Position numbers and translations under genes: made by a program. A stretch of 64,000 nucleotides of DNA from Massalongia carnosa (taxonomy: Eukaryota). Location of the stretch: contig OZ287067.1 in assembly GCA_965645245.1 (NCBI GenBank), positions 2,790,001-2,854,000 on the forward strand. Reading direction: 5' to 3'. The notes under the pieces were generated by a model that saw only the letters and a program-made list of their open reading frames with translations, had not been told where the DNA came from and did not search any database. Numbering within the stretch: the stretch's first letter is position 1; each line of letters begins with the position of its first letter. This document shows positions 35,605-64,000 of this stretch, one piece after another.

Positions 35605-36311
35605 AGCCGTTGCAACTTTCCCACCTTGGCTTCTCCGGTAGATTTTCGGTGAGCAACGTTAGCATATCCAGTTAATTGCAACGACCGCTTCATAAACGCC
35701 AAGGAACTCCAATCACTCTCGAAATCTTCTCCACCCGAACGAACAACTAAGTCAGTCAGCCAAATACCTTTCCCCTATTCGAACCCTGCCTCATAAGTCC
35801 TCGGATTCCCCATCATCCTTCGAGATCCTCCGCTTACCCACAATCTTAGGTTCTCTCATCACTTGTCTATACATCCATCTCTCCCCAACTCCCCAGCTCC
35901 CATCAACAAACAACGATTTAGCTCTTCGCGCCTCCTTCCTTTCCTGCCCATCATCGACCTTAAGCAACCAGCCAATCAAACCCAACCCCTATCCTAGCAC
36001 CCGTAGATTTCCACATCATGCCTAGCCCTTCTCCACTTCCCAAAACCGCCTATCAGACAGATCTTTCAATTTAGAAAGCAAAACCATGAAACATCACCCC
36101 TGGGTTCTCCTCCTTTCCTCCCCTTCCTTCCCTATTTCTCATTCCAAGAACCTCTCCCACCTCAAAGCCTATTCGTCCTCATCAACCACCCCCCCATCCC
36201 CCCCACATTACCTTAAGTTGTCCTTGCCCCGTATTTAATTCGCTTTCCAGCTCCAACCAAACCTTTCTCTATACCTACACTTATCTTAGGATAGAGAAGT
36301 CATGGCTAGTA

Positions 36312-38174
36312 CGGAGGCGAATCTCAAAAGTAATGATAATACGCTAAAGACTAGCGCCGTAATTTAGATTTTCCATACCGAGCCTGAAATTCTACCAACT
36401 ATCTACAAATGCCATTACCAACCATCTAATCAACGTCTTTTTGGTCTGAAACTGGCTGCAGTACGAACCACCTTTTGAATGCGTGGGGGAAGGTGATTTT
36501 TCGGAGATAAAACGGCTCTTTTTCTCAATAAGGGGTGTCAATGGCTTCTGTGTAGGGGGCTCAGGGGTAACTGCCCTGACATTCAACGGGCTGGGTGTAT
36601 CATCATTTGATTGTCTGGATGATGGTCTCGTTGACGCCACAGAAGAAGAAGAAGAAGAAGAAGCTGGTTTTGCTGTATTACTGAGCAATTCTTCCCTCAG
36701 CTGTTGAAGTCGCATTTTTCCTTCTTTGGTCCGTCCATCAACGTCCAAACGTCCTTCGCAATACTCATTTCCACCTTCCAATTCAATGACTTTTGCAATG
36801 TGACGTGGAATTCTTTCAATCCATGCCTGAATATTCTCCTGAGGTAGATCGTCCCAAGTGCGATGCCACATAGATTCAGCAATTAACCGAGAACTAGGAG
36901 GACCTTTGGCAGTTGTACGTCGCTTCATCCAGGGCCAGCAGGGTTCAATCATGTTGAGATCAGGAGAATTTCCGGGCCATAAAAGACGCTCGATGCCATG
37001 ACGAGAGAAGATGGGAATCTGATGCTTGGAAGCATGAGACGGAGCCTTATCTTCCTGTACGATCATTTCAGACAATCCGGCTTCTCTTCTTTTTGCATTG
37101 CATTGCTGAGCAAAAGGAATCAGTTTTGGCAGAAGTATGACGTTTTGATACCGCCACCAATCAATGCCTCCTTTACCTTCTTTTCTGATCATCTTTCCAT
37201 GTTCCTCATCCCATTTCCATTGCGGCTTTTTTCCTGGTAAATTGCGAGTTGAAAGACGTCTCATTCCATTGGTCAGCTCCCAATTTAATCTCTCACTGGC
37301 TTCCAATGCAGCATTCATCTCGTCAAGCTTGGTTTTGGCTTCCGCTTTTTCCGCTTTTGTCTCCGGTTTCCAGCAAGGACATGGCCCCTTCCAATCGTAG
37401 GAAAAGCATCCCCAAAACATGAATTCATGAGCCCCATGCCACCTAGCACGTACGGTGGATTTGACTGGTCTTCTTCCTTCCTTGGTTGTACGCCAAATTT
37501 TGACAGCTCCGCGACGGTGACCAAGCACTATTGCTGTTTCATCTGACCAAATAACCCGCTTCCAATCCTCCACGGTCCAGTCTTTATACAGGAGACAAAA
37601 AGCCAGTCTAGCCGCTTTCATTTCAGGGGTAAGCCCTGGTCTATACGACGGTTTGACTTTTTTATAGCCTCTTTGTTTCAGGATTCTCCACACGGTGCAT
37701 CTGGACGGTCCAACTTCTCTTGCCAACTGGGCACTGGTTTTTTCACGGGCGTATCTGTCTTTTATGACTAGATCAATGACTTCATCTTCTTTCTCAGTAG
37801 TAGCCTTTCTCGGTCGACCAGATTTTTCTTCATGACGGGCGTATTTATCAAGCACCTGCAAAGAAATGGCGGGATCAAATCCTCGATCCCTGGCAATGCG
37901 ACGAATACGATAAATGTTGGGGACAGAATAACCTGTAGTAGCTGCAATAAATTCAATTGAGGCCGAGGTGCAATAAGACAACGTCAAGACCTGAGCCCGC
38001 AAAGAAATATCAGCTGATTTATTGACCATGATGATGATTTGATCAAATGTTGGTTCGTAAATGATTTGGGATGAGAAAAGGGGAAAGAAAAGGGGAAAAT
38101 TTGCTCGGTACGGAAATTTTAAATTACGGCACTAGCTTTTAGCGTATTATCATTACTTTTGAGATTCGCCTCTG
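36312..38174 (-). mobile_element. Tc1/mariner (impala-like, DD34E) DNA transposon, 1863 bp, with TA TSD
   Basis: 72-bp TIRs at 36312-36383 and 38103-38174 with 7 mismatches. TA flanks both ends (36310-11 and 38175-76). Confidence 0.93.
36392..38029 (-). CDS. Tc1-family transposase, intact 545-aa ORF
   Basis: GRPRK HTH linker, VIWSDE and QEDKAPSH...SPDLNMIE, with 34 residues between the second D and the E. Confidence 0.92.
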   Translation of the reverse strand: MVNKSADISLRAQVLTLSYCTSASIEFIAATTGYSVPNIYRIRRIARDRGFDPAISLQVLDKYARHEEKSGRPRKATTEKEDEVIDLVIKDRYAREKTSAQLAREVGPSRCTVWRILKQRGYKKVKPSYRPGLTPEMKAARLAFCLLYKDWTVEDWKRVIWSDETAIVLGHRRGAVKIWRTTKEGRRPVKSTVRARWHGAHEFMFWGCFSYDWKGPCPCWKPETKAEKAEAKTKLDEMNAALEASERLNWELTNGMRRLSTRNLPGKKPQWKWDEEHGKMIRKEGKGGIDWWRYQNVILLPKLIPFAQQCNAKRREAGLSEMIVQEDKAPSHASKHQIPIFSRHGIERLLWPGNSPDLNMIEPCWPWMKRRTTAKGPPSSRLIAESMWHRTWDDLPQENIQAWIERIPRHIAKVIELEGGNEYCEGRLDVDGRTKEGKMRLQQLREELLSNTAKPASSSSSSSVASTRPSSRQSNDDTPSPLNVRAVTPEPPTQKPLTPLIEKKSRFISEKSPSPTHSKGGSYCSQFQTKKTLIRWLVMAFVDSW

Positions 38175-38696
38175 TAAGGAAAAAGCCCATATGTACAGGG
38201 CCGTATTGTTTGGCATACAATCCCCGCCGTCGAGGACCGCTTTATTTACAAGTCATTGTCCCACGACGGGCTTTTAGTCTCCCCTATCATCATGAAAATA
38301 ACGTATGTTAACAACTACCTCTGCTTGTAAAATTGAGCCTCTTGGTTATTAAAAGCCCTGTTCCAAATGGCCGTTCTGGCGACTTGTTTGATTATAAGCA
38401 TTTCCGGTTACCACTTCGCAACCTGATACCGTACCTATGTAGATTATGTTTAGACAGCAAAACGTTTAACGAATGGAAAGGAATATAATAGTTGAATGCT
38501 AAAAATAGCTGACAGCTAGAGAATGAGACGAGTTCCCGTTAAACGCTGGGACTGTGGATGATTACCTAGTTATCGGCGCAGATAGCGTGATTGAATCCCT
38601 GATCATTCAAGTTCCGTCTAGTTTTTATACCATGATATGTGAGTCTTCTATCTTCATAAGTTGTTACTCCGTAAACACTCTTCCCCAAACCAAACA

Positions 38697-47593: not shown

Positions 47594-48898
47594 TATTTAT
47601 TGTTTGTGTGACAGCAATTTCCAAAATGCAAGCGACGTTCAAATCTATGGAAAGGGATGTGAAGTTTGGAATGAAAGAAATGGAGAGGTTGACTCAGCTT
47701 CCTGCATAACAAGGTTGGTGCTATATGTGGAAAGGTACCCAAGTGGTAAGTATAGAGCACTGAAAATTGAGCACTGGGTACCTATGCGGACCTCATCGGC
47801 ATTCCTGCATCAAATTCTGGCGGAACAAGCCGTAGGGAAGCATGGGAATGCAAACAGAACCATTCTTGTCCTTTCTAACTCCCGTTTCTCCGCAGCTAGT
47901 TCAACCAAGGAGTTTCACTTTATCTTTGTTAAAGCTCGAGGTATTCTCCTAAGAAAAGTCCTGCTACGTGATTGAATGCGCTGCTGACGATACAAATCAA
48001 TACAAATCCAGCGTCTTCAGAGCCGCAGAAGCTTTGAATTTTGATCTCTTCAAAGCCCTGTATCATTAAGCTCTAGAAGAGCGACGAATCAATTCGAAAC
48101 TCATTGCGTGAAGCTTCTTTCCTCGAGGTTTGACTCGCTTCTGCAACTACGCGTGCGTTACTTTGGGCTTGAGTTGCTTTGAGAACTCTAGCTATGGGTC
48201 AAGAAATGACTGTCTTGTATCTCTGCGCTCATAGTTCTCTAAGGCTATGAAGCTCAAGGCTTAGAATCATCGACGGAGCTTTGTATTTCTGCACTGACGA
48301 CTTTGCCTATGCTGGGTCGATCATATAATGACGACCATGTGCAGCCTAACTTCCTCAAAAGGGGGAAGTGCTGAGTTATAGTAGGTTACCTTCAATCATG
48401 TAAGAAAGCGAATAATCTCATTTGTGGGCGGGAATCTCCAGTTTTCTTGGTAGATGAAGAAAGTTTAACTAGATATGCTAAGCTTCCTCCTTAACTATGG
48501 GCAGTGATTGCTAATAATTTCGGACTGGTGATGGGAAAAGGAACAAGACTTCACAAGCCGTGCGATATGATCACATTCACAAGCCGTGCGATATGCTGTC
48601 GTCCCATACCCGCGTGATAAGAATCAAGGAGTTTCAGGCTTATGAAACGCTTGGCAAAACATTCCAATACGTGTTGTTATTTTGCATCCGACACGTTGGA
48701 AAGAGGCTATTGCGTCAGGCAGTATTCGAGGTTGACTATCATCAATCCCAGCTAAGCAAGCCTCCTTCTAGCCCTGAGCAGAGAATGTAGCTATTGGGGA
48801 TATATAATGTAAAATACCCACCGCATCCCTCTACACCAGCTATTTAAACCACTACTCACAGATAAGTATTCATCTCAAACACTCTGATTCTCTATCTT

Positions 48899-49552
48899 AT
48901 GCATCACGTTGTTTATTACTTTTTGATCGGTCTGGCCTTGGTTACTTCGGCACCTGTCAGCGATTCAACATTTCCTTTCAACCCAGAGGCCTTCACGGTC
49001 AATTCTGCCGATATCTCTAGCGCCAACCCCGGGTCTACATCGACTAATGAGAATGCTGGACCACCTTCAGCCCCAAATTCTATCGCTATGGATACTGGCA
49101 ACGTGAACTCTGCTTTCAATGGCAAGACTGCCCTCTCCAGCAACCCTAATCCCCAACCATGCGAGTCAACGCCAACTGGATGTTCCTCCGAATCTAGTTA
49201 TCTTGCGGATGACAACTTACCCGATCAACTACCAAGTAGTTTTACCGCCAGGCCTCCGTTCGTGGTAGGAGATACAGCTGAATGTAATCGGAGAACCAAC
49301 AAATGCATGATCTGCTCCGTAGGATACCAATGCTATGAGATGTTGGCGTTGTGCGAAGAGGGAACAATATGCACAATGTGCGATTTGGTTAATCAAGCAT
49401 GCTGGCCAAGGGAGGTGGACATCTCGAAATTGCCATCCAAAGAAAATCCAGAATGCCAGCCCTGGGCAGAGGGGTGTCAAAAATTGCCTCAACAAGCAAA
49501 GCCTGCGGAACCTGAAAAAACCTGCATACCGCTAACCCCCATTTGCTGGTAG
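48899..49552 (+). CDS. Small secreted Cys-rich protein (effector-like), 217 aa
   Basis: Signal-peptide-like MHHVVYYFLIGLALVTSAP, a Ser/Pro/Asn-rich linker and 14 Cys. TATA-like elements near 48801 and 48841. Confidence 0.7.
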   Translation: MHHVVYYFLIGLALVTSAPVSDSTFPFNPEAFTVNSADISSANPGSTSTNENAGPPSAPNSIAMDTGNVNSAFNGKTALSSNPNPQPCESTPTGCSSESSYLADDNLPDQLPSSFTARPPFVVGDTAECNRRTNKCMICSVGYQCYEMLALCEEGTICTMCDLVNQACWPREVDISKLPSKENPECQPWAEGCQKLPQQAKPAEPEKTCIPLTPICW

Positions 49553-50625
49553 AAGGTACCGAAGAGGAAGTTTGAGATTATCTTGGAATCTTCAACTCCA
49601 TAAGAACCAGAAGATCGATGCACATAGCTGGGGGGACCACAGTAGGACGCAGGGCCAAGACATATTCAAAAGGTTGCGTTTTGCTAGCTGATGCGTTATG
49701 GATGGGTGTCTATTTTCCAATAAGGTTCGATTTCGCTCGTGGGCGCTCTGTCGGAGAAGTGGACTATGGTGAACCTTCAATCCATCAAGCTCTTCATAGT
49801 ACATCAATGAGACATTAGCGACCCAATGCCTCGACCATCCTACCCTCGCGCCCTAAACCCATCCATACGTGTTTTTCCCACCGGATTATTTCTCAAAGCA
49901 TCCCTGCGCATTACTTCCCCACGTTCCCTCGAAAGTTTTTTTTCTCATCAACCTCAACCCTCAGGAGATCCACCGAGTGGGTAATTGACCGCAGCTCTAA
50001 GAGCTTCGGAGCAGGTAATTTATATTTAGCCCCCTTACCGAGTTTGAACGCACGCAAATATCTAAATGAACCGAAGCAAAGACAAATCAATGATGAAATG
50101 AAGAAGAGACTTTAAAAACAAAACGAATTCAAATGAAAGCCGTCGCAATTGAACGGAATACTGGATGAAAGACGTGGACTAACATGTCATGTGACATTGG
50201 CGAATCCTTGTCTTGATACTAGTGCGTAGAGTACGTCATTATCTATTGTTCTGCAAGTCTTCCCGTCTTTTGTTCGGATCAAACACCGTGGGGTCTTGTC
50301 GAATAACGCAAGTCAAACGCCGGCCGTGTTTCAAGAGTTGTTCCGATGAACTTGGCTTTTCGGACCCACAGGGTGCCAACTTATCCATCCCTGCGGCTAT
50401 CCCGCTGCCGGGATGATCGACTTTCCACAAGCTCATACAGGAGTCGGTTTCTTGCGAAGGGTTTTCATAGACCACGTGGTTTTTTTGGAAATTACAAACG
50501 AGAGACTTTAGATGGACATGCACTACGGATGATGCTATTTTGTTCCATCTCCATAGCCTGACGCTGCACAAGCAGGATTAGGTTTAAGGATTGGACTACT
50601 CTTCTTGGGGTTGAACGGCCAGTTA

Positions 50626-52792
50626 TCCCTCTCGCTGTCATTCTAGCACCCCCCTCCCAAGCTAATCTATATTGGACTAGCTTCCGCACCGATGAGTCAT
50701 CAGAACATTAGTTTTCTCTAGAGTGTTTGCGCGTTTGTTTACTTTTCAAAGAATACTATTCGGTCATTCAATCAAAATAAATCACATAAATTACTATTCT
50801 TCTAGCTTCGGAATTGATATTATAAGTATGACGCTCAATGAAGAAGAAATCCCGAGTGTATCAGACAAATCTCCCATTTCAGCGAAGCAACATAAAATAA
50901 ATCGCAAAAGAAGTGTTCGGGATATTTTAATCGACCTTCCCCCTATTTCCTCAAAATATACCCCCATTCGGGTTGAAAACAGGCCTTTTGTTCCGCTCGT
51001 TGAAAACGATTCTCGAAATCCTTTGGGATTATTTCGGTTATTTATAACAAGGCAGCATTGTCGTATCATCGCAAATCATACCAATATCAAGGCAAATAAC
51101 TACATGGAAAAGGAGAAGGAGAACAATCATCGGGTTTGGACTGACACTACTGACTCGGAAATTGAGGTTTTTTTGGGCATATTAATTCTTATGGGACTCG
51201 ATCATCTACCTGCTACAGAGGATTATTGGAATCAACGTCCTGACAAACCAGTTATCATGCCTATTCTGTCCGCGATGTCGCTTGGTCGATTTCAACAAAT
51301 CAAACGATTTTTGAAAATCAATAATGGACAGACTGAGCCTATCGGACTTGGTCAAGGACCTGATTGGTGGAAGAAACTGGAACCGTTGGCTACTGATTTC
51401 CGAAAGACTTCATTGAAACATTGCAGACCAGGAAGTATGATATCTATAGATGAACAGCTGGTGTTATTCAAGGGCCGTTCTCGACATACCTTGCAGATTA
51501 CTACAAAAAGTGCCCATAAAGGATTTAAAATCTACAGTCTCTGTCAGGATAATTATCTGTTGTCATTTATGTTTGCCTCGAAGAGTAGCAGAATAAGTGA
51601 ATTGAAAACAGTCAGACAATTGGGATTTTTGCCAAAAGATAAACTAACTCCTAGTGCTTTGTAGTGATTCAGTTATGTAAAGAACTTCCATCCTCACTGA
51701 ATTATCATCTTTTCTGTGATAATTTCTTTACTAGTACGAAATTATTCAAGGCACTTCGATCAATCGGAATAGCTGCCAGTGGAACTGCTAAAAAGGGCTC
51801 GGGCTTTCCAGAAGAATTGTTGGCCATACGGGACGTCACTTCAAAAGGAAAAGACTGGGGTCTTCAGGCCCATATGGTGGTCGACGATAAGGTGCTTTGT
51901 ATGGGCTGGGTGGATAATAATGGTGTGCAGTACATGACCACCGGTCATTCTCCTCAGGACTTGTACGAAATGCACTATATAAATCCGCACAAGAGATATG
52001 GAATTCCCGAGACCTCTCTTCAACCTATTGTATCGTATTTCCCATCAACTCTGGCTCACTCCATTCCCTTGCTCAATCAAGAGGTTCAACGGCCCTTAGG
52101 ATTACCGATACCAGCCCCAATCAAAGAATATAATCTTCATATGGGGGGATCGGATGGAAACGCTCAGCAGCGAGCGATTTACTCATACAATCGTCGAACG
52201 GATCGTTACTGGTGGCCTTTGTTCATTTTTATTTTAGATGCAGCCGGATTGAATGCCTATAAACTTTACTCGCTGAACTCTTTCGATTCCGAGGAGATAA
52301 AATTTACTCGTTCTGAATTTCTTCGTCGGATTGCTCTTGAACTGATATCAAATCAAGCGGGCATCAGGCCCGGCTCATCAAAGATAAGCATCAATACCAC
52401 GATTGATGCTTTAGTACCATCTCCCATTCATCATTACGTTCGTCTTGAAGGCAGAAAAAGATGTGTGCAATGTAACGCCGAGAAAAAACGACCTTCAAAG
52501 CGGAAGGGAGAGCCACTGGCTGAAATAAGTGTCGATGGGCGTAAAAGAAGGCGAAGGGGTGCTCAGACTATATGGGCTTGTGGAGGATGTAATCCAATCA
52601 GGCCCTGCTGTAAGAAAGCCAGCTGTTGGGAAGCTATTCATATGATAGGGGACGAGTAAATAGGTATCTGATACTCCGTACAACTTCTTGTGAATAGGAA
52701 TAACATTGATTGGTCAAAAGTTTAAGGTTTAGCGCTTTCTAACCAACAATGGTTTAGCTTGGGGGGGGGTGCTAGAATGACAGCGAGAGGGA
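50626..52792 (+). mobile_element. piggyBac-superfamily DNA transposon, copy 1 (2167 bp, about 39-40 bp TIRs, flanked by TA)
   Basis: TIR TCCCTCTCGCTGTCATTCTAGCACCCCCC(T)CCCAAGCTAA at both ends. TA at 50624-25 and 52793-94. Confidence 0.93.
50828..52659 (+). CDS. piggyBac transposase (DDE_Tnp_1_7-like), split by a frameshift near 51660
   Basis: MSLGRFQQIKRFL, SIDEQLVLFKGRS, GFKIY, CDNFFTS, WVDN, YNLHMGGSD, YWWPLF and a C-terminal Cys-rich domain with a KRRRR NLS. Confidence 0.88.
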
Positions 52793-52815
52793 TATCGTTT
52801 ACGAATAACCGCCTA

Positions 52816-54982
52816 TCCCTCTCGCTGTCATTCTAGCACCCCCCCCCAAGCTAAACCATTGTTGGTTAGAAAGCGCTAAACCTTAAACTTTTGACCAATC
52901 AATGTTATTCCTATTCACAAGAAGTTGTACGGAGTATCAGATACCTATTTACTCGTCCCCTATCATATGAATAGCTTCCCAACAGCTGGCTTTCTTACAG
53001 CAGGGCCTGATTGGATTACATCCTCCACAAGCCCATATAGTCTGAGCACCCCTTCGCCTTCTTTTACGCCCATCGACACTTATTTCAGCCAGTGGCTCTC
53101 CCTTCCGCTTTGAAGGTCGTTTTTTCTCGGCGTTACATTGCACACATCTTTTTCTGCCTTCAAGACGAACGTAATGATGAATGGGAGATGGTACTAAAGC
53201 ATCAATCGTGGTATTGATGCTTATCTTTGATGAGCCGGGCCTGATGCCCGCTTGATTTGATATCAGTTCAAGAGCAATCCGACGAAGAAATTCAGAACGA
53301 GTAAATTTTATCTCCTCGGAATCGAAAGAGTTCAGCGAGTAAAGTTTATAGGCATTCAATCCGGCTGCATCTAAAATAAAAATGAACAAAGGCCACCAGT
53401 AACGATCCGTTCGACGATTGTATGAGTAAATCGCTCGCTGCTGAGCGTTTCCATCCGATCCCCCCATATGAAGATTATATTCTTTGATTGGGGCTGGTAT
53501 CGGTAATCCTAAGGGCCGTTGAACCTCTTGATTGAGCAAGGGAATGGAGTGAGCCAGAGTTGATGGGAAATACGATACAATAGGTTGAAGAGAGGTCTCG
53601 GGAATTCCATATCTCTTGTGCGGATTTATATAGTGCATTTCGTACAAGTCCTGAGGAGAATGACCGGTGGTCATGTACTGCACACCATTATTATCCACCC
53701 AGCCCATACAAAGCACCTTATCGTCGACCACCATATGGGCCTGAAGACCCCAGTCTTTTCCTTTTGAAGTGACGTCCCGTATGGCCAACAATTCTTCTGG
53801 AAAGCCCGAGCCCTTTTTAGCAGTTCCACTGGCAGCTATTCCGATTGATCGAAGTGCCTTGAATAATTTCGTACTAGTAAAGAAATTATCACAGAAAAGA
53901 TGATAATTCAGTGAGGATGGAAGTTCTTTACATAACTGAATCACTACAAAGCACTAGGAGTTAGTTTATCTTTTGGCAAAAATCCCAATTGTCTGACTGT
54001 TTTCAATTCACTTATTCTGCTACTCTTCGAGGCAAACATAAATGACAACAGATAATTATCCTGACAGAGACTGTAGATTTTAAATCCTTTATGGGCACTT
54101 TTTGTAGTAATCTGCAAGGTATGTCGAGAACGGCCCTTGAATAACACCAGCTGTTCATCTATAGATATCATACTTCCTGGTCTGCAATGTTTCAATGAAG
54201 TCTTTCGGAAATCAGTAGCCAACGGTTCCAGTTTCTTCCACCAATCAGGTCCTTGACCAAGTCCGATAGGCTCAGTCTGTCCATTATTGATTTTCAAAAA
54301 TCGTTTGATTTGTTGAAATCGACCAAGCGACATCGCGGACAGAATAGGCATGATAACTGGTTTGTCAGGACGTTGATTCCAATAATCCTCTGTAGCAGGT
54401 AGATGATCGAGTCCCATAAGAATTAATATGCCCAAAAAAACCTCAATTTCCGAGTCAGTAGTGTCAGTCCAAACCCGATGATTGTTCTCCTTCTCCTTTT
54501 CCATGTAGTTATTTGCCTTGATATTGGTATGATTTGCGATGATACGACAATGCTGCCTTGTTATAAATAACCGAAATAATCCCAAAGGATTTCGAGAATC
54601 GTTTTCAACGAGCGGAACAAAAGGCCTGTTTTCAACCCGAATGGGGGTATATTTTGAGGAAATAGGGGGAAGGTCGATTAAAATATCCCGAACACTTCTT
54701 TTGCGATTTATTTTATGTTGCTTCGCTGAAATGGGAGATTTGTCTGATACACTCGGGATTTCTTCTTCATTGAGCGTCATACTTATAATATCAATTCCGA
54801 AGCTAGAAGAATAGTAATTTATGTGATTTATTTTGATTGAATGACCGAATAGTATTCTTTGAAAAGTAAACAAACGCGCAAACACTCTAGAGAAAACTAA
54901 TGTTCTGATGACTCATCGGTGCGGAAGCTAGTCCAATATAGATTAGCTTGGGAGGGGGGTGCTAGAATGACAGCGAGAGGGA
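52816..54982 (-). mobile_element. piggyBac-superfamily DNA transposon, copy 2 (inverted, apparently identical to copy 1, flanked by TA)
   Basis: Mirror image of copy 1 (paired coordinates sum to 105608) with identical translated ORFs. TA at 52814-15 and 54983-84. Confidence 0.93.
52949..54780 (-). CDS. piggyBac transposase, copy 2, with the same frameshift
   Basis: ORF-track proteins are identical to those of copy 1. Confidence 0.88.
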
Positions 54983-55084
54983 TAGCTTGCGATAACGCTG
55001 TTCGCGCTTCGCGCAAAGCCACTGGGCAGAGGCTCTGATGACCGGGAAACACCCATGGCAGTATCAACTATTCAGATGGCTCAG

Positions 55085-55520
55085 TATCGATTAGAAGCAC
55101 TCATTTGGCGACAGCTGCGATGCAGCTCATACTGGAAGTGGTTGCTGCTAAATGGAGTCTCTATATTCTTCACATGCATCGCTACATTGCGTCCCTAGAC
55201 GAACGCATCTATGACCAACCCGCCAATGACATGCACACTATTATGTTATGGAGCATATCAAAGCAAACATTACCGGCTGGAAGCCTTCTCAGATTTCATA
55301 TCCTGTTGTCGGGACATGTACAGAATGGTTTAATGGTGATGCTGGAGACTGGCTTCGTCAGAACCTCGATGAGTTTACAAAGCCGAGCAAGCAGCGAGGT
55401 AGAAGAGACGCTAAAAAATATACAGCACATATGGTGGATCTCTCGGTACATATACACATACATGCCCTCGACGAACAAAGCTGGCCTTGCAAAACGGAAG
55501 CGATCTGTTGGGTAGATACT
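55085..55520 (+). pseudogene. Decayed fragment resembling fungal CorA-like Mg2+ transporter proteins
   Basis: KWSLYILHMHRYIASLDERIYDQPAND...LW resembles the LE..IYEQPADE..A.ELW segment I recall from fungal CorA-like proteins. Frameshifted and lacking TM helices. Confidence 0.4.
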
Positions 55521-56507
55521 CATCTTTCTTAGCATCCTATCCTGGAATCCCAATCCACCAACTCAAAACAGCACCTCTTCCCCGGCACCCTTCGTGATCA
55601 ACTACCTAACCAGCAAGGGTTGAGTAGGAAACCCCACACACCAAAAAGAAAGAAAGAAAGAAAACGCCACGAAATCGCCAAAACCGTCCCGTTTAGCCAA
55701 ACCCACCCAATGATGTTCTTTAGTAGATAACTGTACATAGGAATTCCAAGCCCCGGCACGCCCAATACCATGTTCCTTCATTGCTCCTCATTTGCTTTAC
55801 AGGGTACCGAGGGGGAATCCTAATTTTATGATGGAAGAATGGACGGATGGATAGATAATAGACGGAAGAGACTGACTGTACCGGATTTAGACTCCCCGAG
55901 TCCCCAACTAGAGTAGTTAGGCAGGCTAACTGGAGGCCTTTGATAAGGAGCTCTGATTTGATCGAGAATCGAGATCCGAGATCCGCGCATTCCCATATCG
56001 GGGGGGATGGTTGGGTAAAATCCCCCACGTATTATGTGGATATGCACCTCCTCGTATGCACTTCCTCGTATGTATGTGTGTATGTATGGGGACGGAGTGG
56101 TCCGTATGATGGAAAGCGATAGTGCCACTCTGAAGCACATCGCCAGGATAAACATACCTACCTAATGTGGATTTGTTGGTGGAGATAGATAGATGGATGG
56201 ATGATGGTGGGGCCATCGTTACAAGATATGTATCGTAGTTATGTAAGGAAGCTGCATTCAGCGAAACGGCAAGCAGCAGCAGCAGTAGTAGTAGTAGTAG
56301 CATAAGGGGAGGGGGGGGCCTAGAGGGGGTAAATAGATAGATAGATATGTTAAGTCACTCGACGACACGTATGGAAAGGGGGGCCATCTTCCCAAACCTC
56401 CAAACAAACCCATCCATCGCCACGTACGAGTACATAACCAGCTCTCTTGCACGACTCCACCACACCTACATACCATTCATCCCCATAGGCTGCAGCGGAC
56501 CACGGCC

Positions 56508-57143
56508 ATGAAACCCAATCCATCTCCTTCTCGCCCTGTTTGCCCCTGACGGCGGCAACGGCGGCAGCAGGCGTGCAAGAACTGTTGGTGCAGGATTCCT
56601 CTGGTTCGGTGGAGAGTAAATGTCCCCCTGGTCGAATGTCCTGGCACGGAATCACCAGCTGTACGTACATACAGGACCTTTTCGCTCTCGTTCAGTTCGC
56701 GCCTCTCTCCTCCATCCCATTCCACCCAGCCCCAGTCTAAACCTACAAACAGACCGTCTACTACCACGAAAAACAACCTCATACCACGGTTCGCCAACTA
56801 ACTAAACCTCCTTTCTCTCCACCAAAATTCTAAACCCTCCAAACCAGCATTGCCCCCCCCCCCCCCCCCCCCCCCAATGCCGACGCGCATCCTTTGCGGT
56901 AGCCGCGGTCTCCCTCCCTGCCGCGTGGGCCTGAAATGCGTGCCTAACTCCGAGCATGCTGGCTGCGACCCGGCGCTCGATTGTCCCGGGTTATGCGTCC
57001 GGCTAGACGGGCCTGTCTGCCTTGGGTTTGGGGGCCTGCGGTGCCCCAACAAGGACCAGCACTGCTATATTAGCCGTGCGTGCAACCATCCGGATTGTTC
57101 GGGGACATGCTATTTCCTGGATGGCCGCTCATCGCGGGAGTAG
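56508..57143 (+). CDS. Small secreted Cys-rich protein (frameshifted as given, exon structure uncertain)
   Basis: The last exon has paired CG.RGLPPC / CLGFGGLRCP Cys modules. A signal peptide MKPIHLLLALLPLTAATAAAG is recovered by removing two homopolymer bases. Confidence 0.5.
56853..56875 (+). repeat. Poly-C tract (23 nt) encoding poly-Pro
   Basis: Directly visible C23 run. Confidence 0.9.
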
Positions 57144-58481
57144 AGCAGTGAGGAGAGGAACGAGGGGAGCGGGGAAATAAAATGTAAACTGGTGGGGATG
57201 GAGTGGGGGCGATTTTGGTTTGTTGCTTGACGGGAGAGAGGGAGGGGTGAGTATGAGAAAGGGGGTAAAGCAAGATTAGAGAAGGCGCCGGAGTGAGCTT
57301 GTGCACTGCTTAACGGGTTCTACCTTCATGCCTTTTTAAAGCCGAACTTTTAAAATTGATGATGAAGGATAAGACATACTTAATAGCATAACGCTAATAA
57401 AGAATGCTAATACTCGAGGCTTGTATTCCTGCGGAGGGAACTCGCATGGTACGAAAGAATGGGTTAAGCATCGAAGAGATCAAGGTCTGAGAACAAGACT
57501 AACCATTCAGGGAGAGAAAGAGGGATATCATGTGTAATAACTGAAGACGCATTGCAAATAAAATGATGTTGGAAGGGGTTTATATATATTATTTGTTGAG
57601 GAAAGTCATGTAGCTAGGTTACGCGTTCCGCAAGTCATTCAAAACAGCATAGGATGAAACACTATCATCAAAATCCACCTTCGTGATTTACCTCTATACC
57701 GGAGATGCAAAACAGAAAAACTCCAAAGAAAATTGAGTAGTTGAAATAACAAGCCAGTCAGAGAAATAAATAGAAAATATTGACCTATGAAATTTAACTG
57801 GCTCAATATTATATACCGTAGGGATCACAGCCACACATATTAAACTTGTATATGATATGATGTACATGTATTTCTTCCTTTCTTTCTATGGGCCGATCGT
57901 CACGTTGAGCAAATACCTTTTGTGGATGAAGACTTCCGAGATTCGGGCTGAGAGGTATCTTTACCTCCGTGCTGGGTGCTTCTAGAGTGGTAGAGGTGCG
58001 ACTTGAAAGGAGTGGCTGCCTCTTAGTTGCAGAAACAAGTTCGGAATTGCTGGCCAGAGCTACTCCAATGACTCGGCAAAAGGGGCGGCCTCAAACCCCT
58101 CAGTAGAACAGCAACCAGCTCGTTAAGAGGATCCTCCTCGGCGAAGTCCAGAAGGGTTTGCCTAGCAGACAGAGTGATAACTGGAGGCTGAATACGGGTT
58201 GCAAAGGTCTGGTGGAGTGAATGGTTTGTTGAGCAACTTTGCCCTCGATGTCTCAATTGATCTGCTCAACGTTTTCGCTACCACTCAACGGCTGGAAAGG
58301 CGCGCCTTAGGCGTAAGCGCCCTTGCCTTACTCTCGTTGGATAGCACCAGTCCGTCGCACGTTGAATGCCGCAGCTGAAAAATGACGAAAGCTGCTCAGA
58401 CCGATTGTTTTCTGGTGCAATGGGCTTTATGCGTGCGACTCCAGAGAAGACGCGCCGAGTCGCCAATCTCTAGATGCTTTA

Positions 58482-58710
58482 GGCCCCGTTTGGTAACCTC
58501 CTTATTGTCAACAAGGAGCCTCCTTCTTGAAAAGATGGAACCTCCTTATAATGAAAAAGGCCTTCCGTTCGGTTCGGCCTCCTCCTTATTTTTTAAGGAG
58601 TCTCCTTCGCGGCAAGTTCTATAATTAATATATTGCGCAGGGTCTGCAGGGATTGTTGTAGGGGGCCAAAAGAAGGTGGTCGCGAGGTCCTTTTTTTATT
58701 AAGGAGGGTT
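58482..58710. mobile_element. Possible PIF/Harbinger (Tourist-like) terminal remnant with subterminal CCTCCTTA repeats
   Basis: TTA|GGCCCCGTTTGGT followed by several CTCCTT(A) motifs in both orientations. No partner TIR was found. Confidence 0.4.
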
Positions 58711-59897
58711 CTATTTGCCTCCACCCTCCGTATTCGACGATTATATGTCTTTTAAATATGGAACACTACTTGCAGCGACGATCGCAAACAGCGACGGTTA
58801 TCAATTTAATCTTGATGAGAATTGTTACCAATCTAATTCTGACTACTCAGCATGAGTCGAATAGAGGCAAAGAATATACGACGAGTTTACTTACTTGTCA
58901 ATAGCTTCTTATTGTAGCCGCGAATAAGTATGTACATGTATTATACTAGTACATACAAAATAAGTAAAACCAACACAGTGAGAACTTGAGTTCACGATTT
59001 GCATCACAACACATTCACACGCGATTGAAGAAATCACTGACCTCTATTCTACCTCAGGCATCAGATTACAGTGGCACACAGTCACATTGATGTTTTCACC
59101 CGCTGTGACGTTGAATATTGCGCAACCTCGAGCAAAACTCATAAATCCTAAGTACCTAGGACTTGACGATGCTATCTCGTCCTCGGTTCTTCGTTCCAGC
59201 CCTGTTTCTATACCCACCCATCCAGGAGATCTTTGACCTTGCAAATGAGCTTATTGTCTCTTTTTCGGATCGACTTTGGTAGTTATTTTACCGTCATGAA
59301 AATCTGCCTGAAGTTACCTCCCTCTTCACCTGCTCTAATAATCATAAAATTTCTCACAAGGCCTGGGCTACAATTTCATACTTCTTGCCTTCCTGCGCTT
59401 TCTCCAATTGTCCAGCATGAGCATAAAATTCATTTCCGGGAACTATCCATCTTTTTCACACCTCGTATCATCAGGCGTCAACGATCTACCTTGGAGGGTT
59501 GAAATTTCTAGTTGTCGGAAAGGTGTCGCTCAAATTAATTCTCTTCAGCCTCCCTTCTTTGCTATCTAGAATTCTTTCAATCCGAGGGCGCTAGCCATGT
59601 CTAAAACAGCTTTCAATCAATGAGACGAGACTAACCCATTCTTTCATTCATTCCTTTCCTGTTACGTTTCCGTCATCTTTCATCGTTTCAGCAGAAGAAC
59701 AACAATGCCATCGCCTCATCATGAAATTTCAATATAAATCTGCGCTTATCTACCCTCTTCCACTTATCATCATCACGAGCGGCATCAAAAACCTATTCTA
59801 TAACAAACTCAACACCCTAATATATACTCCTCCCATCATCACTGCCGCCACCAGCCTTCTCTTCCTCACTATCTAGCTCACTTTCCCCCCCCCTAGA

Positions 59898-60208
59898 ATG
59901 CCTCACTGGTCTTGCTGCCTCTGCTCCGAATTCAACCAGCCCACTCAGGAGAACTGCGGCGAATGCGTCCACCGCCGCTGCGGTTCCTGCAGCACCCACT
60001 ACGCGGTTCACTCCCGCCGCAGCAGTGCCTTTTGGGTATCTTTTTCTTCGCAAATGGCATTACCGGTACGTTTTTCTTCTGTCGGAGCCGCGCTACCGGT
60101 GTGCTAACGCTTAATGGGACGGGCTAGGATGACGACAACTATGACGACGATAGCCGTTTGAAGAAGGCTTGCGGGCATGTGGGGAGAGTGGCGTATGAGG
60201 GTACTTAG
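59898..60208 (+). CDS. Small Cys-rich zinc-ribbon-like protein (about 82 aa, 2 exons)
   Basis: W-S-CC-x-C...C-x2-C-x-H-x2-C-x2-C. An in-frame intron at 60066-60127 reads GTACGT...GCTAAC...TAG. Confidence 0.5.
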
Positions 60209-63117
60209 GTCCTGTGTGGGAGTTGTCGAGTTTCTGAGGCCGTTGATTGCATGAGCATTTCGTCGATGAGTTAGGGATAATGTCATGGTTTTTTTGTTGG
60301 ATCCCAGAGCCTTGGCTGGGAGTTTTGTTGTTCTTTTTTCGTTTTCCTTCTCTAGGGTATAGTTTAAAGAGCTAGATGCTCTTTATCCAATTACCGTTTT
60401 CAGCTACGAAAGGAAAGAAGAGCTAACCTAAACAGGAAAGAAAGAATAACCAAATAGAAGAGGGAAGAAAGATCGAGATGAACATTCGTCGTTCATGGTG
60501 ATGATGGTGAATTCATATTCCGTTGTGACATCAATCGAAACCTGGCTCGTTATGCGAGCTAAACTACCACATGAAAACCCTCTCCCAAAAAACCCCCCTA
60601 AAAAATCATATAACCTTGATAGCCTTCCAAGACTCCTTCGAGATCACCCTCGCATGATCCAATGCCAAGGACAACGAGACCCCGAAAGAAAGGAATAGAT
60701 GAAACGAAGGGACTGTTGACACGATATTTTGTACAGCCAATGAAAATCGAATCAGCGTGCCCTGTTCTTCGTTAGCCAGGCGGGTTAACTGATAGTTTGA
60801 CGAGTATGAGTCGATAGTCGATAGTTGTTCGTGCCCGCGGCGTTCATCTTTCGTCTTTCGCTTTTCATTACTTACCTTCATAACATCCCCACAGCCAACC
60901 AGCTCCTTTCCCATTCAACTAGGCAACACTGGCCACCTTTTGTCTCTCCAAGCAATATAATGAAATGAAATATAATATCAACTAACCGCCCGACTGATTG
61001 AACATTAGTTATCCCCTTCAAACGATCCCTTATTCTCTCTCTTTCCTTTCCACCCCCTCGAAATCGAACTCGAAACCGAAATCCATACCCTAGCAAATAA
61101 AACGCCTACCTTGCTTTTTTTCAAGGCCAGACTACATAAATACATAAATACATACCTGACTAATCTAGGATAATTTGTAGCGAACAATCCATAGAGATAT
61201 AACCAGAAAGGAACTCCAGGCTGTGCTGTGCGGGTCATCGGTCTGAGGTATTGATTCATCTCCCAATCAAGAAGTGGGTTTTGAGTTGATTTTGGGCCTC
61301 CAATCGCTCTAAAAAAAATCACTCAAGAGAGGGAAGGGATAGTTGAGGCCTGCACGCGGTGAAGTGGACTATGTTCTCCGAGATTTTATCTCCATAGAAT
61401 CTCCTCCCCCCTCCACCTTTATTGTCATCATGATCCCGAGGTTTAGAATCTTTGACGCTAATTATGAGCTTGGGCTGCTTGACAAGATATTCAACCTCCC
61501 TGTTTCTTTCTAATCTTCAAAAGTAAATGGGTAGGGAGATGGAGAGGTGGAGGTAGCAAAGACGGTAAAAATAGGTAGATGAGGCCGAGTTTGAGAGTGT
61601 GAAAGGAGCCTACTGTTGATTTTTCCAGTGTAAATAATAAACTTCGCACCTACACTAGAAACCTGACTCATTTCACTACCTACGTATTCTCATTTTCAAG
61701 CATCAGACTACCATGCTCCATCACTAGCATATAAATTTGCGATTCAACGTGCTGCCATCCATTAGATTAGCATGAATTCCTAGTCTCCCTTGTTAGAAAC
61801 CCTGCTTGGCTTTTACCTAGCGACGAGGCCCCCGAATCCCTATACACCCCCTACATGGAAGACGTTGTTCCTCGGTATATCCGCATCATTAGTCATCCGC
61901 ATTATGTGAAAATCTTCTAAGCCACGAGGTTCGTATATGTAGCTTCCGTAACCTCCGCCGTCTTGAATCGATCTCTTCCGTCTCAGACACCGAGACTGCT
62001 CGTCTTCTGCACAACAGCTCTCGCAAGGATTTTTCTAGCTTCACGGTCTTCGCGTTGATAAGCGGCACATATCGTGATAGGCTACTGAGATGACTTAGGA
62101 GTTAGAGGTCGAACGTCCTCAAGCCTTCAATCTCCAGAAACGGCCTTATCCAGAGCTTTTCTCGCCCGCCATAATGCTGGAGGGGGTCGGTGTCGCTCAA
62201 TGACGCCTTGAAGTGTCTTAGCCCTAGTAGTTTGGTCGCTACGATATGGAAAATACGGCGCCAGCCTTTCGGGCTGGCGAATTCGTCGTATTGAGGAAGA
62301 TAGCGACGTTGCTCGAAGTAAAAAACAGCCCAGCTGATATTTAACGTGGAGATAGTCGCAAATTTCGAGGGAGGATGTGTCGCGAGAAGTGAGAGAGGGT
62401 TGGCAGATGATCTATATCATGTTTTTTTCGCATAAATGATACCAATAGCTTCAATATATTTGCTGGCAGATTTGCAAAATGGACGTACTACACTCGAGAA
62501 ATATTCATAAAGCCGCCGCTCCAGATGGGATTTGACCACCTCGCTTGTTATAACCTTAGGGATGCTGTCCCCCAACCCAGTGGAGTCGTTCTGTGTCAGA
62601 GGACAGCATAAACGAAAGTAATGTGTTGATTACATGGAGTGGCAACTCCTATGCACAAGCCGTCTAGGAATGTAAAACTTATGTAAAGGGTTCCCTCCGA
62701 GCACATACGTGTAAATCTCCAAGCGCAACTCTGTAGGGAGACGATTAAGAAACAGGCAGTCCGCATTGAGGGTATATGGTAATGAGGTAGACAATCTTCC
62801 TCGTATTTTGGATGCTTTCCTTGGCTTGGTGGCTCACCTTTTTGTGTACACTTTGGTCAAGAAAGTTGCGTGAATCCATGGCAAGAACGGAAAACAGCAA
62901 CCCATGAAGCACATGAACCCCCCACCAACGATAAGCCCAGAGCATGCCATTTCAGAAGATGCAAGTCTTGAAAGATAAGAATACCACCAACAAGGAAATG
63001 CATATGTTTAGGTGCTCAATAGGTGGGAAGGTCGAGAAAAGCAAGGATGCCAAAAGCAACTGGACGTTTTAATAGAACTCTATTCGTGCCCCACACTTTC
63101 GCTCGGTCGACTCGCTT

Positions 63118-64000
63118 AGTGCTAGCCAGCCATACAGCCAGGACCAGCCATACAGCCAAAAATCAACTATCCTACATACATCGAGGTTTTTTTCAGCAAT
63201 TCCTTCATGATCATCATCCATCTTTTGTGACTATTCATGCTTCTAGTCATAAGCATCTTTCTATGCGCTTTTGACTGCCTAACCACTTTGGTAAGAGCCG
63301 TACAATAACGCTTTTCCCATGCGACGTTTCGCTCTTTCTCCCTTATCTCCTCCTGCTCCTCCCTACCACGAACCATTGAACGGGCCTCACCAACAGTAAG
63401 TACGCCTCCGTGATGAAGAATCTTATTGGCCTCTCGTTTACGAGCTTTCCGAGCAGTTTGGGCCTTGATTTGTTGTTCCCAGCGTTGTTCCAGAAGATCG
63501 CCTTTTCGAACCTCGGCAACAGCTCCCTTTACAAATTTGCTAACAATTTGTACGAGGTCATCCGAGCAAGCTGAATGCGTCATGATTTCTGTGGCTACTG
63601 TGGCCAACTGTCGCACGGTTCGAGGGGTTTCTTGTACAGATAGGGGGGCTGTATGAGACGGAGTTGACTCACGAGGAGGGGGAGGAAGAAGTTCTCGAAC
63701 TTTGTCGAGAACAATGCCTGGATTGAACGGAATCAAGCCTGTTTTTCTCCAAGCAGACTGTATGGTGGAAGGTTTAAAAGCCAGCGATCGAAACTTGCTA
63801 AATGCATTCAGAAATTCGACTTTGGAAAAGGTTTGATCTCCATTCTGAATTGCTTCATTGACGGCCTCCGAATGCCAGTGTTTCAGAGGTTGAAAAACAC
63901 ACACATCCAATGGTTGTAAGAGATGTGTGGTGTGAGATGGTAATCCGAATGGAATGATGTTTTTCGTTTCACAATATTCTAGAAATTCTCGAGTATGATG
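63118..64000 (-). mobile_element. pogo/Fot1-like DNA transposon, 3' end (continues beyond the window)
   Basis: Transposase C-terminus followed by a putative TIR at about 63118-63163, which contains a 15-bp direct repeat CCAGCCATACAGCCA (63126 and 63144) next to TA at 63117-18. Confidence 0.8.
63167..64000 (-). CDS. pogo/Fot1 (DDE_1) transposase, partial
   Basis: FLEYCETKNIIPFGLPSHTTHLLQPLDVCVFQPLK and IQSAWRKTGLIPFNP. Confidence 0.88.
   Translation of the reverse strand, partial: HHTREFLEYCETKNIIPFGLPSHTTHLLQPLDVCVFQPLKHWHSEAVNEAIQNGDQTFSKVEFLNAFSKFRSLAFKPSTIQSAWRKTGLIPFNPGIVLDKVRELLPPPPRESTPSHTAPLSVQETPRTVRQLATVATEIMTHSACSDDLVQIVSKFVKGAVAEVRKGDLLEQRWEQQIKAQTARKARKREANKILHHGGVLTVGEARSMVRGREEQEEIREKERNVAWEKRYCTALTKVVRQSKAHRKMLMTRSMNSHKRWMMIMKELLKKTSMYVG

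Follow-up and report, generated by a model that had tools for sequence, protein, structure and literature searches.

A perfect 4361-bp palindrome in Massalongia carnosa, probably a recent tail-to-tail insertion of two copies of one defective piggyBac-family element

The window, i.e. the whole analysed stretch of 64,000 nt from Massalongia carnosa (contig OZ287067.1), contains two copies of a piggyBac-family element that lie tail to tail and together make a perfect palindrome of 4361 bp. Direct comparison of the left arm (50624-52794) with the reverse complement of the right arm (52814-54984) gave 0 mismatches over 2171 nt each. The arms are separated by a 19-nt spacer, TCGTTTACGAATAACCGCC (52795-52813), which occurs in the window once on the + strand and 0 times on the − strand. 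The two identical arms and unique loop described by the sequence-only reading were thus borne out, as was its statement that the symmetry ends exactly at the outer TA on both sides: the first outward position is unpaired, and pairing at the next 29 positions (7 of 29) is at chance level. The left and right flanks of the palindrome show no relation to each other. An alternative arm length, 2177 nt, is obtained if six flank positions, four of them paired by chance, are added to the 2171. Outside the two arms the window has 0 element 20-mers. The features of the locus are listed below.

50624..50625, no strand: outer TA at the left copy, a putative duplication of the target site; the symmetry ends here
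50626..52792, + strand: left element of the piggyBac family, 2167 nt with the TAs not counted (arm comparison and Pfam match)
50626..50672, + strand: 5′ terminal inverted repeat of the left copy (end-to-end alignment)
50828..51664, + strand: first half of the transposase, from ATG to a premature TAG, with the first catalytic Asp (IDEQL); PF13843 positions 1-183
51661..51662, + strand: 1-nt deletion (C missing behind 51661) at codon 314 of the intact 645-aa protein, present in both arms
51664..52659, + strand: second half of the transposase (shifted), with the second and third catalytic Asp and a Cys-rich tail; PF13843 positions 196-349
52746..52792, − strand: 3′ terminal inverted repeat of the left copy (end-to-end alignment)
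52793..52794, no strand: inner TA of the left copy (duplication scan)
52795..52813, no strand: spacer of 19 nt, found once in the window; presumably the original target DNA that lay between two TA sites
52814..52815, no strand: inner TA of the right copy (duplication scan)
52816..54982, − strand: right copy of the element, the reverse complement of the left with the same frameshift (arm comparison and reading frames)
54885-53944 and 53944-52949, − strand: transposase frames of the right copy
54983..54984, no strand: outer TA of the right copy (arm comparison and duplication scan)

Each arm is a complete element bounded by inverted ends of ∼47 nt. The first 29 bases of the element are identical to its 3′ end; a 1-nt difference in a run of C follows, and similarity extends to ∼47 nt. 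A search with the 24-nt terminal repeat (up to three mismatches allowed) returned four matches in the window, namely the four element ends, with 0 expected from 100 shuffles. The terminal-repeat 23-mer had 0 matches in metagenome, genome and viral contigs. As for the target site, TA is the sole direct duplication of at least 2 nt that is consistent at both copies (AT was also listed as a duplicate; this results from reading the TAT/ATA ends with a shift of one base). Insertion into TTAA is the defining trait of the piggyBac family. Neither TTAA nor a 4-bp duplication was found when the boundaries at the four ends of the two copies were shifted by −3 to +6. As a target for piggyBac, TA would be unusual, provided that these flanks hold family-wide.

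The assignment to the piggyBac family comes from the transposase frames. The two halves of the gene match PF13843 (DDE_Tnp_1_7) with E-values of 2.2e-31 (profile 1-183) and 2.5e-16 (profile 196-349). The intact family protein, P0004, matches positions 1-349 of the same profile (E-value 1.1e-52; 180 bits, cut-off 22.4) and the solved Trichoplusia ni piggyBac structure 6x67 (E-value 4.3e-17). If the frameshift is disregarded, the protein of the window copy is identical to P0004 (0 amino-acid differences). The catalytic aspartates of P0004 are D243, D333 and D478; the frame break falls between the first and the second of them in both window copies. Hence three catalytic aspartates in one uninterrupted protein are present in the family and absent from the two window copies. 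The frames do converge, as had been described; still, to speak of two transposase genes overstates the content of the locus, because both genes are broken by the identical 1-nt deletion, each being split into frames of 313 aa and 331 aa. As judged from its reading frames, the palindrome appears to encode no working transposase.

An intron of 68 nt (51597-51664), whose removal would put the two halves back in frame, was considered as an alternative to the frameshift. This candidate was rejected, since intact family members read straight across the stretch, and the deletion site itself lies within an unbroken ...TPSALLVIQ... in these copies. A distant relative, P0003, also speaks against the intron, with a similar run of residues there (compared by eye, with no alignment).

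Like T. ni piggyBac (6x67) and piggyBat (9c0f), the family has a full-length DDE_Tnp_1_7 domain in a single gene between inverted ends. The acidic motifs align with those of 6x67: IDEQL, CDNFFTS (CDNWFTS in 6x67) and GGSD (GGVD in 6x67). Further shared traits are CCC...GGG near the ends and, putatively, a Cys/His-rich C-terminal tail. In this family the last 85 residues carry the Cys/His clusters CVQC, CGGC, CC and C..H, and the alignment with 6x67 stops before them. In contrast to piggyBac, the four ends of the two copies are flanked by TA rather than TTAA, with no 4-bp duplication, and an extra T/A stands between the TA and the CCC/GGG. The kinship is distant; 6x67 matches in two stretches only.

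The family is multi-copy and nearly uniform in sequence, with several intact copies. Its protein cluster has 56 members; contig records were read for 40 of these, and 15 were listed, of which five are full-length transposases. P0004 is the commonest intact protein and is present on five contigs, while the truncated products P0018 (313 aa) and P0012 (331 aa) were each found on one contig only (3,767,895 nt). Further frameshifted copies with additional changes could exist among the 56 members. Beyond the 90% cluster of the family, the nearest proteins are one that shares 80% identity across 72% of the query, followed by others with 36-50%. The dinucleotide indices of repeat-induced point mutation (RIP) in the element are close to those of the whole window (TpA/ApT 0.70 vs 0.74; (CpA+TpG)/(ApC+GpT) 1.33 vs 1.26), and by the usual thresholds for these indices the element has no RIP signature.

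Contigs of four samples (X3, X4, X5 and X6) were aligned to positions 48000-52860, i.e. to the left flank, the left arm, the spacer and an adjoining 47 nt of the right arm. Being built from short words and breaking in repeats, such contigs can neither confirm nor deny the palindrome. The extra C behind 51661 is carried at full depth by the contigs of X4, X5 and X6; those of X3 carry it in part, where it accounts for only 27,904 of 82,270 in summed contig depth, a quantity not equal to copy number. Taken at face value, the X3 depth would make the frameshift common in that sample, at odds with the one-contig result for the truncated products. Word depth was much lower in the flank than in the element: ∼880 vs 86,000-239,000 in X3, ∼26 vs 414-815 in X4 and 0-8 vs 164-238 in X5.

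The junction of the left flank with the element is spanned by an X3 contig (49222-50649), which enters the arm by 26 letters, fewer than the 31 set by the bridging rule. In X4, a contig of 39,002 nt follows the left flank to 50626 and continues with 50 letters not matched to the element. Because these last letters found no place on the element, we take the contig as a hint that the left flank is not joined to the left arm in the X4 sample as it is in the window. Among the 30 pieces listed (there were 1521 further pieces) none lies over the spacer 52795-52813, and no joints were reported. The spacer with its two TAs had 0 matches in metagenome contigs.

No gene appears to have been hit by the double insertion. 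A Pfam search of 14 stop-to-stop frames from 47.2-50.6 kb and 55.0-59.5 kb, to either side of the locus, gave 0 families. In the modelled empty site only two short frames, of 64 and 47 aa, cross the junction, with fewer than 30 residues to each side of it.

The reading that we favour, with somewhat better than even confidence, is that the palindrome is a real double insertion of very recent date, made when one defective element in a fungal chromosome, probably that of a lichen-forming ascomycete, re-inserted tail to tail beside its parent copy with the help of an intact transposase acting in trans. A copy of the commonest variant of the family would have inserted at one TA and would then have lost one base, so that its transposase became split between the first and the second catalytic aspartates. 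An intact transposase, available in trans from full-length members of the family, would have moved or copied the defective copy into a second TA, 19 bp off and in the opposite orientation, with the donor site restored from the sister chromatid. The two arms are probably sister copies, because they have the frameshift in common and the records of the truncated products are confined to one contig. It counts against this reading that, in yeast, long perfect palindromes are strong sites of breakage when their spacer is short (PMC8053094, PMC7999016 and PMC10164571); the palindrome in the window could have survived only if it is very recent. The locus is expected to be a hot spot of breakage and rearrangement at the DNA level, a likely break-prone site within a chromosome-scale assembly.

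In a different history, two family members from elsewhere would have inserted independently at a favoured site, and the inverted arms would have become identical afterwards through gene conversion, frameshift included. Such conversion between the arms of palindromes is established, and in a family with so little variation (five contigs share an identical P0004) the identity of the arms says little; the far greater depth of element words than of flank words in X3, X4 and X5 would also fit. P elements are known to insert beside a resident copy, according to the portion of PMC2577343 cited. We consider this history unlikely, however: an insertion within 19 bp and a later conversion, both of them rare, are required where a single local hop would do, and the data bear no sign of conversion. 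Unlikely, too, is an assembly artefact, in which a single copy at the locus, or two alleles with one insertion each, would have been folded back by the assembler. Several observations agree with an artefact. No contig lies over the spacer among the pieces listed; a high-copy, near-identical family is hard to assemble; a ‘private’ mutation is common to both arms, as if one physical copy had been written twice; and the sample may be a mixed thallus, since one of the data sets that contain the sequence is labelled as a lichen metagenome.

Yet a fold-back chimera predicts symmetry that runs on into the flanks and an axis at a read end, whereas here the symmetry stops at the TA and the terminal repeat. 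The inner ends are complete as well, each with its own TA, and the spacer, an unremarkable 19-nt sequence that is unique in the window, does not seem to resemble known sequencing adapters. An overlap of 19 nt would, moreover, be too short to join long reads. The preference of the sequence-only reading for two real insertions (a local hop) over a fold-back chimera therefore stands, given that the copies have inverted ends of their own, a duplication of TA only and unrelated flanks.

A close parallel in arrangement is the singed-weak locus of Drosophila, where two inverted P elements lie 8 bp apart and each can be excised, as the cited part of PMC2577343 describes. In both cases two complete DNA transposons of the same family stand inverted within a few bp of each other, those in the window each with a target duplication of its own. 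The loci differ in that the P elements of singed-weak are described there as defective and its 8-bp spacer is the target duplication, while here 19 bp lie between two TA sites; the superfamily and the kingdom differ as well.

If the locus is real, a cut-and-paste transposon has been caught just after building an inverted copy of itself. In maize such an event is held to start the silencing of an active family, and the palindrome would be a natural fungal test of this idea. From its geometry the locus could feed RNAi: a transcript not stopped within the 135 nt after the stop codon would fold back on itself. A working trans-silencer like Mu killer or Ac killer would produce a read-through hairpin of up to 2.1 kb, starting at the promoter of either copy, from which Dicer-cut small RNAs would repress all copies. 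The layout is suitable, as the genes converge with only 135 nt between stop codon and element end, and a search for seven A-rich hexamers (AATAAA and close variants) found none in 52657-53100. The central piece of 599 nt folds at −594.6 kcal/mol, as compared with −168.7 ± 7.6 for 100 shuffles; an energy this strong is due to the palindromic sequence itself. There are precedents in the cited parts of the literature, both for inverted duplications of transposons acting in this way in maize (10.1101/2020.01.07.897926; PMC3440606) and for silencing of genes by hairpin RNA in an ascomycete (PMC4515635).

Nevertheless, we regard a working silencer as improbable. Several intact, near-identical copies persist without decay of the RIP type, which argues that the family has not been silenced for long, and the palindrome looks younger than the spread of the family. 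Mu killer and Ac killer 1 resemble the locus as inverted transposon duplications able to give long hairpin RNA. As far as the cited excerpts describe them, they are partial or fractured duplications that came from rearrangement or alternative transposition, driven in part by flanking promoters, with siRNA and heritable silencing demonstrated; the window has two whole elements without duplication of flanks. A natural ‘piggyBac killer’ of a lichen-forming fungus, in which a dead inverted pair would supply read-through hairpins for RNAi against a family whose copies are still increasing in number, together with a piggyBac lineage that inserts into TA and duplicates 2 bp, would make the most of these observations and is a long shot. 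As the evidence stands, the locus is a neat oddity of structure that has an ordinary explanation.

Elements of the piggyBac class have been recorded in lichen mycobionts, Umbilicaria pustulata and tripartite Peltigera (PMC8773270; 10.64898/2026.06.16.732702). The cited parts of these accounts deal with counts and genome shares, with ends, target sites and inverted pairs unmentioned there, and they report low to moderate copy number with high identity.

The window contains a perfect inverted repeat. Its two 2171-nt arms, 50624-52794 and 52814-54984, match as reverse complements without a single mismatch and are separated by a 19-nt spacer, TCGTTTACGAATAACCGCC, that occurs once in the 64-kb window. 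The sequence-only reading had described such a palindrome, with a unique spacer and a symmetry stopping at the outer TA, and its observation is confirmed: outside the arms the first position is unpaired, and 7 of the following 29 positions pair (chance level). No 20-mer of the element recurs outside the arms in the 64-kb window, and a 24-nt terminal repeat matches at the four element ends alone (0 expected by chance).

Features of the palindrome
50624-52794, + strand: left transposon copy
52795-52813: spacer
52814-54984, - strand: right transposon copy
50624-50626, 52792-52794, 52814-52816, 54982-54984: element ends, TA-T-CCC... / ...GGG-A-TA

Each arm is a DNA transposon, complete in itself, that belongs to the piggyBac superfamily. 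Two frames of the arm match Pfam DDE_Tnp_1_7, the first at profile positions 1-183 (E 2.2e-31) and the second at 196-349 (E 2.5e-16). The inverted-repeat ends are identical over the first 31 nt (TA counted); a one-base difference within a run of C follows, and similarity persists to about 47 nt. The hallmark of piggyBac is TTAA, whereas all four ends of the present element are flanked by TA, the sole direct duplication of at least 2 nt at both copies (four ends, with no empty site for comparison). At these four ends there is no TTAA, and a 4-bp duplication is absent at every boundary shift from -3 to +6. Among the matches listed from the public sequencing runs X4 and X5 are five contigs from other copies that start matching at 52813; therefore, C-TA precedes TCCC in those copies, which may hint at a CTAG-like target. 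In one X4 contig the match begins at 52792, preceded by 27 letters that are neither element end nor left flank; in further X4 junction contigs it ends at 52790-52792, before the TA.

The transposase frame is interrupted by a TAG stop at 51662-51664 and continues in a different frame. Since the related protein P0002 (645 aa, 99% identity) is uninterrupted across the break site as ...TPSALLVIQLCKEL..., and contigs of X4, X5 and X6 have an additional C behind 51661 at full depth there, both arms carry a 1-nt deletion at codon 314. A distant relative, P0003, has a similar residue run at this site (sequences compared by reading alone). A 68-nt intron mending the frame was rejected, as P0002 reads straight through. 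In a further public run, X3, the additional C accounts for 27,904 of a summed depth of 82,270. This split could mean that the deletion is more frequent than the protein look-up implies; depth summed over contigs does not measure copy number. The three acidic motifs of the intact protein (D243, D333 and D478) align with the solved T. ni piggyBac 6x67 (E 4.3e-17). The frame break lies between the first and second motifs, and neither arm is able to yield active transposase.

The 90%-identity cluster comprises 56 distinct proteins from a single source (ENA); 40 of the 56 were examined and 15 listed, five of these 15 being full-length (645 aa). Sixteen listed members are located on large contigs (1.4-3.8 Mb, ten distinct sizes). 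Frameshift aside, the window copy and P0004, the most widespread listed member (5 contigs vs 1 for each of the other listed members), differ at 0 amino acids. P0018 (313 aa) and P0012 (331 aa) are the truncated products of the window copy, each recorded from one 3,767,895-nt contig only. The family is multi-copy and fresh.

Word depth in public runs
X3: flank about 880; element 86,000-239,000
X4: flank about 26; element 414-815
X5: flank 0-8; element 164-238

Dinucleotide indices of the element show no RIP-type skew relative to the whole window (TpA/ApT 0.70 vs 0.74; (CpA+TpG)/(ApC+GpT) 1.33 vs 1.26). Relatives beyond the cluster were few in the protein search, with 28 protein clusters at E 1e-5 or better; one of them has 80% identity across 72% of the query, the others at most 50%. 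The protein P0019 (465 aa, 80% identity) fits a second subfamily. Loose ends recur in X3, X4 and X5 at internal break points 51053, 51354-51360 and 51393, which may point to a sister family that has diverged, or to a derivative with a deletion. In X5 and X6, runs labelled as other organisms, the listed pieces of 50994-52743 have 0 other letters; flank cover is thin and partial in X5 and entirely absent in X6 (6 contigs, depth at most 2). The explanation is either that this fungus occurs in those samples too or that several species share the element.

The anatomy favours two transposition events: none of the four ends is truncated, a TA pair frames each copy, and the outer flanks are unrelated. 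In a fold-back read or an assembly chimera the symmetry would extend into the flanks, which here are unrelated, and the axis would not lie 19 nt away from a genuine transposon end. The earlier interpretation as two real insertions is supported; in addition, a shared frameshift has left both copies dead. Contigs of the four runs, all built from short words, show no joint in 48000-52860, and 0 of 30 listed pieces (1521 more exist) cross the spacer. A 1428-nt X3 contig joins the left flank to 26 letters of the arm, the bridging rule being 31 letters. In X4, whose flank differs from the window at 20 positions plus indels, a 39,002-nt contig matches the left flank up to 50626 and has 50 letters beyond; with 31-letter words, a total of 50 would result from 18 nt of the spacer, the TA and 30 nt of the terminal repeat, by arithmetic and not by observation. 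If so, X4 would have the right copy and an empty left site. Sequence searches gave 0 matches for the spacer in metagenome contigs and 0 for the terminal repeat in metagenome, genome and viral contigs.

The arms are probably sister copies: most simply, the deletion arose once, at or near the locus, and one arm served as the source of the other. Most likely an intact transposase acting in trans re-inserted the defective element, in opposite orientation, at a second TA 19 bp away, and repair from the sister chromatid restored the donor site. Passages of one paper on P elements describe local hopping near donor elements and singed-weak, likewise an inverted double insertion a few bp apart (PMC2577343). 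A less likely alternative to copying of one arm from the other is that two insertions occurred independently and gene conversion later made the arms identical.

A transcript passing the 135 nt from stop codon to element end would fold back on itself. A central piece of 599 nt has a folding energy of -594.6 kcal/mol vs -168.7 +/- 7.6 for 100 shuffles, because it is itself palindromic. Seven A-rich hexamers (AATAAA and close variants) are absent from 52657-53100; fungal signals of this type are loose. In maize, inverted duplications of transposons do initiate silencing (10.1101/2020.01.07.897926; PMC3440606). We nevertheless consider it improbable that the locus silences its family through hairpin RNA, as the sequence-only reading had proposed; many intact near-identical copies imply that the family has not been silenced for long. 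The type of structure is already known, and its interest is modest unless RNA data reveal family silencing.

According to three yeast studies, chromosomes break strongly at long, perfect inverted repeats whose spacers are short (PMC8053094, PMC7999016, PMC10164571); instability of the locus is therefore expected, again pointing to a recent origin. The whole 4.36-kb unit could possibly be mobilised by its two outer ends, since the element's 5' and 3' termini closely resemble each other over about 47 nt.

The palindrome sits in a stretch without a recognisable gene: a profile search of 14 flank frames gave 0 Pfam families. The surrounding ~13 kb (49553-63166) is without frames of at least 150 aa except the transposase halves. 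The window is eukaryotic, and apparently fungal; genes for SRP54, a class I Glu/Gln tRNA synthetase, Rrp15p, COG2 and a bZIP protein with a Hap4 Hap2/3/5-binding motif are present. One public run containing the 64-kb stretch is labelled lichen metagenome, and piggyBac-class elements were annotated earlier in lichen-forming fungi, as sections of two reports state (PMC8773270; 10.64898/2026.06.16.732702). A second DNA transposon, unrelated to the palindrome element, has 74-nt inverted ends that are 91% complementary:

36310-38176, - strand: Tc1/mariner-type transposon, 545-aa uninterrupted frame with HTH_Tnp_Tc3_2 and DDE_3 domains
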